IMG/VR virus record: IMGVR_UViG_2660238147_000004 | Coordinates: 1-49,037 of that record | Source: a virus | Lineage: Duplodnaviria > Heunggongvirae > Uroviricota > Caudoviricetes | DNA: 49,037 nucleotides | Strand: one strand, 5' to 3' | Shown here: one piece after another, positions 35,987-42,971 of the stretch | Layout of the letters: every line of letters starts with the position of its first letter | Position numbering within the stretch: position 1 is the first letter of the stretch | The notes under the pieces: model-generated | The model's input: only the letters and a program-made list of their open reading frames with translations | Told to the model about the DNA's origin: nothing | Database searches by the model: none | Program-made: the position numbers and the translations under genes

Positions 35987-36337
35987 TCAATTGATGCGTT
36001 CGCGCGCTGTTTTTGCTTTATGACAGGGCCAGCACAGACTCTGCAGGTTACTGTCTGCATCTGTGCCACCATGAGCTTTCGGAATGATGTGGTCCACAGT
36101 TCTGGCTTCAACGGCTCTCCCATTGCGCAGGCAGTTCTGACACAGATGATTATCACGCTTCAGTATGCGCGCACGTATGGCATCCCATTTCGAGCCATAG
36201 CCACGCTGGTGGCGGCTCAGTCCGCGTTGATGCTGTACCCATCCTTCGCCACGATGTTTATCGCAGTAACCAGAACTGTCTGTGGTTGTACCTGCACATC
36301 CACGCTTACGGCAGGCGCGTGGGATTAGTGCTGGCAT
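35987..36337 (-). CDS. HNH endonuclease (116 aa)
   Basis: CxxC...CxxH...H..H zinc/HNH motifs (..CQNCLRNG...VDHIIPKAHGGTD...NLQSLCWPCH..); typical partner of HK97-type terminases. Confidence 0.85.
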   Translation of the reverse strand: MPALIPRACRKRGCAGTTTDSSGYCDKHRGEGWVQHQRGLSRHQRGYGSKWDAIRARILKRDNHLCQNCLRNGRAVEARTVDHIIPKAHGGTDADSNLQSLCWPCHKAKTARERIN

Positions 36338-36475
36338 GTTTCGCCCTTATATAAATCAAAGGTGACCTGCATTGAGTATCTCCATGGAATAGATTTGCTG
36401 CTGATATGAGACAGATCAATAGACTTCATGAGCCAACGGGTGTAGATATTACTTTTTACTTCAGAGGGTTAACTC

Positions 36476-37015
36476 ATGGATATTAAAGATAAAATCAATA
36501 CCATTTTGTTATGTGACATTGCCATCCACCTAGGTATCGAAACTGATATTGATCCACAGCTTGTTAAATATGCTGTGTCATCTGGTAATGATTGGGTTAT
36601 CAAGGCCGAATATTCACATTTGGATGTTGACGAACCAAGTAAAGAAGATCGTGATTTTGTTACTGCTGTCTTGAATATGTATCGCGGACTTTCCAATGCT
36701 TTCAGGAAACTTAGTGATGACGAGCAAAAAGAATTAGTCCGTGACCATCATCTAAAAATACATGATGGGGCAATTCAGCTCCCAGGTTTCGACGGTAATA
36801 ATGAATGCGATTACTTCAGTATCATTGAGGCATATCAGAAAATTGATCGCTTCCCCGAACAGAAACAGCCCATTGCCAATACTCATTCACGTACAGAACA
36901 TCTCTATAACGCAATGCTTGATGAGTTTAAGAAAATTGACGCTGTAAATCGAAGCTGGGATTTATCGAAGGAAGAACTGGCATCCATTCTTTCCACAGCT
37001 CCACGCAGTTTCTAA
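36476..37015 (+). CDS. hypothetical protein (179 aa), moron on the opposite strand between terminase and lysis genes
   Basis: Only sizeable plus-strand gene inside the late region; AT-rich; RBS GAGGG; no family recognised. Confidence 0.6.
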   Translation: MDIKDKINTILLCDIAIHLGIETDIDPQLVKYAVSSGNDWVIKAEYSHLDVDEPSKEDRDFVTAVLNMYRGLSNAFRKLSDDEQKELVRDHHLKIHDGAIQLPGFDGNNECDYFSIIEAYQKIDRFPEQKQPIANTHSRTEHLYNAMLDEFKKIDAVNRSWDLSKEELASILSTAPRSF

Positions 37016-37020
37016 GTGCT

Positions 37021-37287
37021 TTAGGCGGGTTTCCAACCCGCCTTATTATGCTCGTATATAGAGAAGGAAGCACCCAAATTAACCAGCGCGGATTTCTTTT
37101 CCTCAATACGGCTGTTAAGTTCAGCAACTGCATGCGGGCGTATGGCCTCAAGAAAAGCACTATATTGATAGGCAGACTGGATTGTCACACCAAGCCCTGC
37201 ACCACTTTCCAGTATACCTTTCTGTCGCTGTAGCTCTTTCATCTCGTTATAGATGTAATGTGCGTTACTTAGGTTTTCTACGTTCAC
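37021..37287 (-). CDS. hypothetical protein (88 aa) downstream of Rz
   Basis: ORF convergent with the 179-aa moron. Confidence 0.45.
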   Translation of the reverse strand: MNVENLSNAHYIYNEMKELQRQKGILESGAGLGVTIQSAYQYSAFLEAIRPHAVAELNSRIEEKKSALVNLGASFSIYEHNKAGWKPA

Positions 37288-37442
37288 GCCCTAAGTTCTT
37301 CCTGCAGTTAGCCTGCACTGATTTGTTATGCGCCAATATGTCCCGCTTCGTCTGTTGCATTATCATAAGTAATAGCGTAGGTTGACACCTTGGCTCTCTT
37401 TCGCCACCGGCGAATCTTTAGCGGATTATCCTTGGCCGGTTT

Positions 37443-37925
37443 TTATCTGAGACATTGCTCACGAATGTATAGCTGTGCCCCTTCCAGTTGCTTCTGCATC
37501 GTCATCAACCGTTCTCTGAGGGTGAAATAATCCCGTTCAGCGGTGTCTGCCAGTCTGGGGCTGGTTGCATTATCCACGCTGGTGGGTCCGGTGGCTTCAC
37601 GCACGGCTGCGGAGCAACTGGCATTGACCCGCAGGCGCTTACGACCAGCGGCAACATCAGCGCGCAGAGTTTCATTTTCAGCTTTCGCATTGGCTAATTC
37701 TCTCGAGTACTTTGCATCGAGCGCAGCAACATCACGCTGACGCTGTTGCATGTCAGCGATGGTGGCAGTCGCCTGCTTCAGCTCACTGACTTTTTTATCA
37801 CGCTGTTCTTTGTAGGCGATGGCGTTATCACGGTAATGATTGACCGCCCACGACAGGCAGACGATGGTGCAGATAACCAGAGTATAAATAATCGCTGCGA
37901 CTCTGCTCACTGATCTATCCCCCAA
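37443..37925 (-). CDS. Rz: i-spanin Rz
   Basis: N-terminal TM segment followed by coiled coil; overlaps the endolysin end; contains an embedded Rz1 frame. Confidence 0.85.
37505..37690 (-). CDS. Rz1: o-spanin Rz1 lipoprotein, embedded in Rz in another frame
   Basis: Lipobox LVVSAC followed by a Pro-rich short peptide; start may be the internal ATG (MKLCALML). Confidence 0.75.
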
Positions 37926-39074: not shown

Positions 39075-39515
39075 AGCCTCACCTCCGCAGCGAACGGATG
39101 GCGTAGTTATAAGGGGAGCGAAAAAGAAAGAATGCGCGATTGCGCAATATGGTAACGTCAGGGTATTATCCACTGGCTGAATAGATCACTTCACGTTTTT
39201 TGTTCCTTGCCGCCCGTATCCATATGCGGGCTTTTTTTTGCATGTAAAAAGGCCCCAACACATGTGCGTGGGGCCTGAGAGTATACATGGTTTCAGTCAA
39301 CTGCATGGTGCCGGGTGCCTCCCGGTGAATTCAGTACCAGCACCTGAATCCGCGATTATCCCATATACCTACTCGCTGATTGCCCCTCCGCACAGGGGGA
39401 TTCACCATGCCAGTTTCTTTTAACAAACTCCCCGCAAAACAGACAACTGTCAACCGTCTGAATTGTGAGACATTTAAAAAAAAGGCCCGCAAAAGCGAGC
39501 CGGGAAAAATAAGTC

Positions 39516-39592
39516 TGGCGCGTTGTACTGGATTCGAACCAGTGACCGATTGCTTAGAAGGCAATTGCTCTGTCCGGTTGAGCTAACAACGC
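39516..39592 (-). tRNA. tRNA-Arg (anticodon UCU)
   Basis: Hand-folded cloverleaf: acceptor GCGTTGT/ACAACGC, anticodon loop CTTCTAA, T-arm GGTTCGAAT, CCA end. Confidence 0.8.
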
Positions 39593-39605
39593 AGGGTACA
39601 GATAA

Positions 39606-39682
39606 TGGACCGCCATCGAGGACTCGAACCCCGCGCAACCAGCTTCGAAGGCTGGTGCTCTATCCTGATGAGCTAATGGCGG
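39606..39682 (-). tRNA. tRNA-Arg (anticodon UCG)
   Basis: Hand-folded cloverleaf: anticodon loop CTTCGAA, T-arm GGTTCGAGT, CCA end; unusual C1-G72 acceptor pair. Confidence 0.7.
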
Positions 39683-39689
39683 TATGTGA

Positions 39690-39765
39690 TGGTGGCCCTT
39701 GCTGGATTTGAACCAGCGACCTGGCGATTATGAGTCGCTCGCTCTCACCTCTGAGCTAAAGGGCC
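39690..39765 (-). tRNA. tRNA with CAU anticodon (Ile2/ileZ-like or Met)
   Basis: Hand-folded cloverleaf: acceptor GGCCCTT/AAGGGCC, anticodon loop CTCATAA, T-arm GGTTCAAAT, CCA end. Confidence 0.8.
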
Positions 39766-42524: not shown

Positions 42525-42680
42525 TTACTCCTCAGGTTCGTAGACTGTGAAGACAGCGACCTCCGTCTGGCCGGTTCGGATTCGTACCTCGCAGAGGTCT
42601 TTCCTCGTTACCAGTGCCGTCACTATGACGGTTAAACAGATGACGATCAGGGCGATTAACATCGCCTTTTGCTGCTTCAT
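42525..42680 (-). CDS. Hok/Gef-family type I toxin (51 aa; HokD/RelF-like)
   Basis: MKQQKAMLIALIVICLTVIVTALVTRKDLCEVRIRTGQTEVAVFTVYEPEE is near-identical to chromosomal Hok-family toxins as recalled. Confidence 0.9.
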   Translation of the reverse strand: MKQQKAMLIALIVICLTVIVTALVTRKDLCEVRIRTGQTEVAVFTVYEPEE

Positions 42681-42971
42681 AGCCTGCTTCTCCTTGCCTT
42701 TCGGCACGTAAGAGGCTAACCTACGTGTGTAGAGCATAGATATGGCCTCAGATTAATGTTAAGCGTCTTGCCGGACGCGTAATGTTAACTGGGGCTTTTC
42801 TCTATCTGCCTTTTGGTGTTCATGCCTGAGACAGATAGCCTCAAGCACCCGCTGCAATTCTACTTAACTCTCCTTTTCCCGCAAACCGTTTTTATCCCCA
42901 GCGGCAAATCGAATACACCACCAGCGCCACCGCCATCGCAATTCCTACCGTTGTTAATGCTTCAGGCCAGG

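Follow-up and report, generated by a model that had tools for sequence, protein, structure and literature searches.

The closest functional precedent for the gene described here is Kamadhenu, a single-gene system consisting of a 180-residue YfbU-fold protein that is encoded on the lactococcal plasmid pUCCL624 and makes cells broadly resistant to phages, with the phenotype of abortive infection (PMC11381338); escape from Kamadhenu occurs by one substitution in a Sak-like single-strand annealing protein of the phage (PMC12184496). The fold itself is represented by chromosomal YfbU of Escherichia coli (UPF0304), the product of a core gene, for which the crystal structures 1WPB and 4LR3 are available. 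With respect to genomic position, bor of phage lambda is the classic moron located after Rz, and iss is a bor homolog; Bor and Iss are small outer membrane lipoproteins that confer serum resistance. Here, we analyze a stretch of 49,037 nucleotides of a tailed virus (IMG/VR record IMGVR_UViG_2660238147_000004, positions 1 to 49,037), hereafter called the window, which is a lambdoid E. coli prophage. Positions 36338 to 37060 of the window constitute a self-contained accessory cassette composed of a leader, a gene for a YfbU-fold protein of 179 amino acids (36476-37015, plus strand), and a terminator hairpin, the whole being antisense to the late operon. We are highly confident that this is a real YfbU-family moron, and we tentatively propose, largely by analogy to Kamadhenu, that its product may be a lysogen-expressed single-protein abortive-infection or superinfection exclusion factor. 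The YfbU annotation, the classic bor/iss position, and the functional precedent in another phylum are already known.

An earlier note on this DNA, made from the sequence alone, had recognized neither the 179-residue protein nor its converging neighbor of 88 residues. The former belongs to the YfbU family and is already named "YfbU family protein" in RefSeq (WP_000351660.1; UniProt A0A0E1L8A7). Residues 46 to 172 match PF03887 (YfbU / UPF0304) with 46.3 bits, above the cutoff of 25 (E 6.5e-12), and the protein matches phrog_6084 with an E value of 8e-83. While a search of the PDB sequences with the single sequence missed YfbU, a profile built from 30 homologs matched both crystal structures, 1wpb and 4lr3, with an E value of 3e-9, and the two-domain helical YfbU fold was found to extend over the full length of the protein. 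Pfam family and fold are thus common to the prophage protein and chromosomal YfbU, as is the motif GFD...E...Y, which reads GFDGNNE...Y144 in the former and GFDAATE...Y in the latter. However, the first 50 residues of the prophage protein are not alignable with chromosomal YfbU by sequence, the structure-based identity of the two proteins is 15%, and the equivalog model NCBIfam NF003936 is matched with 34.8 bits against a cutoff of 90. The 179-residue protein is a family member and not an orthologue of chromosomal YfbU, and in contrast to the core gene yfbU, its gene is accessory, low in guanine-plus-cytosine (GC) content, and prophage borne. Across the prophage subfamily, the residues C13, A33, W40, G104-F105-D106, N109-E110, H137, and Y144 are invariant.

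The protein starts with MDIKDKINT... and carries no signal peptide; it is a soluble helical protein unrelated to Bor and Iss, and no Pfam or NCBIfam match connects it with them. The likeness to bor and iss lies in the slot, which directly follows the spanin genes and precedes the packaging genes, and in the antisense orientation. Homology of the insert protein to structural or lysis proteins was likewise not found. Kamadhenu is similar in being a stand-alone YfbU-fold protein of about 180 residues without an obligatory partner, the neighboring genes being variable among homologs of the present gene, but it differs in the phylum of its host (Lactococcus) and in its carrier, which is a plasmid rather than a prophage. 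A further likeness exists to single-gene prophage defenses that lysogens express, such as BstA (PMC8585504) and Tab (PMC10884400), in that a lone gene at an accessory site of the prophage is proposed to guard the lysogen against other phages; the 179-residue protein has no sequence or fold relation to either, and no self-immunity element was identified at the YfbU locus.

The gene is under purifying selection, with ratios of nonsynonymous to synonymous substitution rates (dN/dS) of 0.07 to 0.14 where dS is not saturated. The exact 179-residue sequence is present on at least 1000 public contigs, and the gene occurs in many clinical E. coli and Klebsiella isolates. A literature search retrieved nothing on the RefSeq accession WP_000351660.1 or on the two matching phage isolates. 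A profile search of 1.84 billion representative proteins yielded 2112 clusters at E values of up to 1e-3, mostly of stand-alone proteins of 170 to 190 residues, and in a viral structure library the YfbU fold was found in one structure only. A search for E. coli copies of P0043, a distant homolog of 183 residues, found none.

Among complete E. coli genomes, about 4% encode a prophage YfbU protein, and such proteins are also present in prophages of Klebsiella, Salmonella, Enterobacter, and Providencia. The homologs of higher identity come from Klebsiella (94%) and Salmonella, and those examined at 50 to 84% identity from Enterobacter, Providencia, Superficieibacter, and metagenomic or SRA assemblies. 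All examined homologs of at least 50% identity lie within the late region of a prophage, oriented against the late operon, in the interval from the lysis cassette to the small terminase gene. This position and orientation are kept despite differing lysis genes (GH19, GH24, and GH108 enzymes; several holin types) and across three terminase types (P27/HNH, Nu1/GpA, and DUF1441/GpA), and even a relative of 32% identity is antisense and located just upstream of a holin gene. No neighboring gene is constant among the YfbU homologs. In two cases, the slot is shared with identifiable defense genes. In a metagenomic prophage (L031:1397-2275, plus strand), a TIR protein of 292 residues is encoded antisense in the lysis-terminase slot together with a YfbU homolog of 74% identity; it is ThsB-like and matches the PADLOC model PDC-S66 with an E value of 1e-113, and the two genes form a small defense island. 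At locus L016, a PD-T4-6/Stk2-like kinase (E 4e-30) and a PP2C phosphatase occupy the slot along with the YfbU homolog. YfbU-family genes are also frequent on plasmids of many phyla, including those of Enterococcus, Acinetobacter, Bacillus, and actinobacteria. On plasmid p3 of Enterococcus faecium (L022:3998-5035, plus strand), a YfbU-family gene of 172 codons, present with at least 99% identity in about 150 Enterococcus plasmid records, is followed after 7 bp by a gene for 170 residues that has no PADLOC match; this pair may be a two-gene variant of the family.

The earlier note had described the gene as a moron in a hotspot between lysis and packaging genes and had suggested a comparison with related prophages lacking the insert, in which its reading held up. 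In sibling E. coli prophages with flanks of 92 to 99% identity, the differences are confined to the stretch from the HNH start codon to the Rz stop codon, homology breaking at 36337/36338 on the left and within 37443-37473 on the right, and the interval given in the note, 36338-37442, is the one from the HNH start codon (36337) to the Rz stop codon (37443). The slot is empty, with 42 bp, in L018; it holds iss in L019, in the same antisense orientation as the YfbU gene, an antisense GNAT acetyltransferase gene plus a 66-codon gene in L003, and two small late-strand genes in L020, while in 207 genomes it is occupied by the YfbU-family gene together with the 88-codon gene. E. coli CE10 and many further strains carry the 1105-bp region with 100% identity, and among 5426 complete E. 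coli genomes, 224 have at least 80% of it, in every case on the chromosome. The open reading frame for 179 residues begins with ATG at the position given above, and the claim of an otherwise uniformly minus-strand late region was borne out by the CE10 prophage, in which all other annotated genes from the tape-measure gene to cro lie on the late strand.

The slot is not the only variable site in this part of the prophages. In E. coli N96 (L021:926-1441, plus strand), a second antisense accessory gene, encoding 171 residues without a Pfam or PADLOC match, is located between the HNH and small terminase genes, and the position beside the HNH gene is therefore variable as well. In Citrobacter prophages (L032:2764-3342, minus strand), the slot itself has a further occupant, an unrelated antisense gene for 192 residues without a Pfam match, which stands immediately behind the 76-residue family gene described below and replaces the YfbU gene; the idea that it might be a hidden YfbU was rejected on the basis of an hhalign probability of 0.1.

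The cassette has features of an independent unit. In the upstream region of the gene (36338-36475, plus strand), a leader block of about 60 nucleotides (roughly 36416-36475) precedes the ATG and is kept in homologs of 74 to 94% protein identity, whereas the sequence farther upstream diverges. It contains a GAGGG ribosome-binding site (36464-36468), 7 nucleotides upstream of the ATG, and possibly a weak sigma-70 promoter, for which TTCATG (36425-36430) and TATTAC (36447-36452), separated by 16 nucleotides, are candidate elements. A LexA box was also considered but rejected, as inspection by eye revealed only CTG-N8-CAG and CTG-N11-CAG and not the canonical CTG-N10-CAG spacing. Immediately 3' of the YfbU stop codon, a GC-rich hairpin (AGGCGGGTT-tcc-AACCCGCCT, 37023-37043) with a minimum free energy of -16.2 kcal/mol and a z score of -3.4 is probably the terminator of the cassette; a strict terminator scan did not call it because the T-tract, TATTAT, is weak. 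The hairpin of the Klebsiella locus is homologous to that of the window, the Enterobacter and Providencia homologs have unrelated hairpin terminators at the matching position, and terminators were called at the corresponding place in L005 and L009. The GC content of the gene and its upstream region is 39.1%, in contrast to 51 to 54% in the HNH, Rz, and TerL genes. With its variable presence, its composition, and its own terminator, the gene fits most of the definition of a moron, and we infer that it is transcribed independently.

The proposal of a defense function is made because of the Kamadhenu precedent, the prophage slot, the antisense orientation, the defense genes found near homologs, and the frequency of the family on plasmids. 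According to this proposal, the gene would have a transcript of its own in the lysogen, in which the Q-dependent late operon is silent, and this transcript would end at the hairpin; once the prophage itself enters the late phase, antiterminated transcription of the late genes would cross the YfbU gene in antisense. The protein would act alone against an incoming phage, in the manner of Kamadhenu, by responding to a replication or recombination function of the invader, and the infected cell would be halted, so that the lysogen population and the prophage might be protected. That the trigger is linked specifically to a single-strand annealing protein is suggested by the escape substitution of the lactococcal system and appears distinctly improbable for the protein studied here. 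Extended to the family, the proposal would make the enterobacterial prophage YfbU proteins a widespread branch of Kamadhenu-type systems that sense recombination or replication functions of invaders, for example, an annealing protein; such a generalization we regard as rather unlikely. Two E. coli YfbU-family clusters are listed by DefensePredictor as putative novel defense genes with log-odds of 5.99 and 4.78 (PMC13092281 Table S10).

Several points weigh against the defense proposal. The DefensePredictor entries are untried predictions and concern other YfbU-family proteins, and PADLOC (2023), the database of which predates Kamadhenu, gave no match for either the 179-residue or the 88-residue protein. 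The likeness to Kamadhenu is one of shared fold and size. In tblastn searches against plasmids, YfbU proteins of Firmicutes plasmids were only about 25% identical (E = 2), and Lactococcus was not among the records listed when the E. coli or Enterococcus YfbU protein served as the query. Since other occupants of the slot, iss and the GNAT gene, are not defense genes, the slot position does not imply defense, and since chromosomal YfbU is encoded by a core gene, the YfbU fold is not dedicated to defense. Consensus promoter scans revealed nothing above chance on the plus strand of the window or in four homologous loci.

The alternative that fares best is that the protein is a lysogenic-conversion or host-physiology factor instead of a defense protein, which we consider unlikely. 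In one version, the protein would act as a paralog that modulates the DNA damage response, joining chromosomal YfbU oligomers or competing with them and thereby tuning death or survival at induction. E. coli yfbU has been reported to be necessary for mazEF-linked death after DNA damage (PMC2646832), and the 16 chains in each of the deposited entries 1wpb and 4lr3 suggest an oligomer; the death phenotype, however, comes from one study, and the 15% identity and the low equivalog score make coassembly doubtful. In the other version, the gene would improve host fitness in some niche, as iss and bor do from the matching slot, which is in line with the presence of iss in the matching orientation in siblings and with the clinical origin of many carriers. 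Against both versions stand the identifiable neighbors of the homologs, which are defense genes, and the anti-phage activity of Kamadhenu, the sole stand-alone mobile YfbU-fold protein that has been tested.

A role of the gene in the phage's own lytic cycle, either as an accessory to packaging or lysis or as an anti-defense factor during infection, is very improbable. The HNH and terminase genes are nearby, and in different phage lineages the gene keeps its place with respect to those for lysis and packaging, but the YfbU gene runs antisense to the late operon, accompanies three different terminase types, and is missing from siblings with nearly identical terminase and lysis genes, one of which has an empty slot; the solitary occurrence of the fold in the viral structure library also speaks against a lytic role.

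The converging open reading frame described in the earlier note was found on the minus strand at 37021-37287 (88 residues, GTG start, WP_001100260.1), the stop codons of the two genes being 5 bp apart, and both open reading frames are real genes. The 88-codon gene does not belong to the insert; it is the conserved terminal gene of the lysis module and has lost its stop codon. Its product matches phrog_5415 with an E value of 2e-38, and 276 clusters of homologs were obtained; most of the homologs listed are 76 residues long, with 74 to 86% identity across these 76 shared positions. At 37057-37059 (minus strand), the TAA of the ancestral gene has become ATA in the window, and codons 77 to 88 (37024-37059) are an extension by 12 codons through the terminator hairpin up to a new stop codon at 37021-37023. 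An origin of the 12-residue tail by recombination with the cassette was considered and rejected, since the alignment with Klebsiella shows that the stop codon was lost in place. That the 76-residue family gene closes the lysis module follows from Klebsiella, Salmonella, and Citrobacter, where it overlaps the end of the Rz-like or o-spanin gene before it. The family gene is annotated as a pseudogene in strain APEC 102026 (L004), where the YfbU gene is intact, and it also occurs beside a late-strand gene for 187 residues (L002) or the unrelated antisense 192-codon gene of Citrobacter; given these other partners, the family is not tied to YfbU. The AlphaFold2 model of the 88-residue protein is a helical hairpin with a predicted local distance difference test (pLDDT) score of 76, and a fold search with it returned generic helical hairpins only, all with E values above 1. 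The notion that the two convergently transcribed genes make up one module, for instance a toxin or a sensor and its partner, is the least probable of the alternatives: the 76-residue family gene, the hairpin, the antisense YfbU gene, and the HNH gene do recur together in E. coli, Klebsiella, and Salmonella prophages, but the small genes that face the YfbU homologs of Enterobacter, Providencia, Superficieibacter, and others, where there are any, are unrelated, the E. coli and Klebsiella versions are 94% identical for YfbU and 79% for the 76-residue family, indicating separate histories, and the other partners, the spanin overlap, and the pseudogene just described all argue against a joint unit.

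Should the protein block other phages, Kamadhenu-type defense would extend from lactococcal plasmids to enterobacterial prophages. This would be relevant to the choice of therapeutic phages against E. coli of the sequence type 131 (ST131)-like kind and Klebsiella, and it would open a route to the biochemistry of the long-orphan YfbU/UPF0304 fold, core chromosomal yfbU included, as the first such function. If the protein is inactive against phages, the gene is one more accessory gene of the well-known bor/iss slot. Natural controls exist in the form of prophages with like flanks and an empty slot, and the gene is a single 540-bp unit with its own leader.

The slot is bounded on the left by the HNH endonuclease gene (35987-36337, minus strand; PF01844, E 1.9e-16) and on the right by the Rz spanin gene (37443-37925, minus strand; PF03245, E 1.9e-49), in which Rz1 is embedded (37505-37690) as an open reading frame with a lipoprotein box; both bounding genes are context outside the insert. 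Farther to the left, the minus strand carries the genes for a P27-family small terminase, the large terminase, and the portal protein. The spacer between the Rz stop codon and the 88-codon gene (37288-37442, minus strand) is a mosaic whose recombination break points lie at 37303 and 37356: the segment 37303-37442 is common to the GNAT-carrying prophage L003, and the sequence up to 37356 is common to L004 and L002, both of which have a different lysis cassette. To the right of the slot, Rz/Rz1 is followed by the genes for a lysozyme, YdfR, and a class II holin, three tRNA genes, and the gene for the Q antiterminator.

Some further features of the window were observed. An accessory gene block at 3549-9049, beyond the tail-fibre gene and Lom (12469-13068), encodes an H-NS-like protein (5758-6162, plus strand), DUF4756, DUF6404, and DUF6387 proteins, and a RepL-like protein; the block represents either cargo carried at the end of the prophage or an island of its own. 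The three phage tRNA genes (Arg-TCT, Arg-TCG, and Met-CAT; 39516-39765, minus strand) lie between Q and the lysis genes, and the sibling L003 has another set at that place (Gly, Thr, Lys, and Ile). Downstream of Q, in the interval from the tRNA genes to the holin gene, a full-length match to the small RNA family STnc100 is located at 39240-39439 on the minus strand (Rfam RF02076; 140 bits, with a gathering score of 47). Finally, a match to the sok antitoxin RNA (RF01794, 117 bits) at 42675-42850 on the minus strand overlaps an open reading frame for 70 residues (42525-42737, minus strand), and the two together resemble a toxin-antitoxin locus of the hok/sok type, situated in the prophage's nin region.
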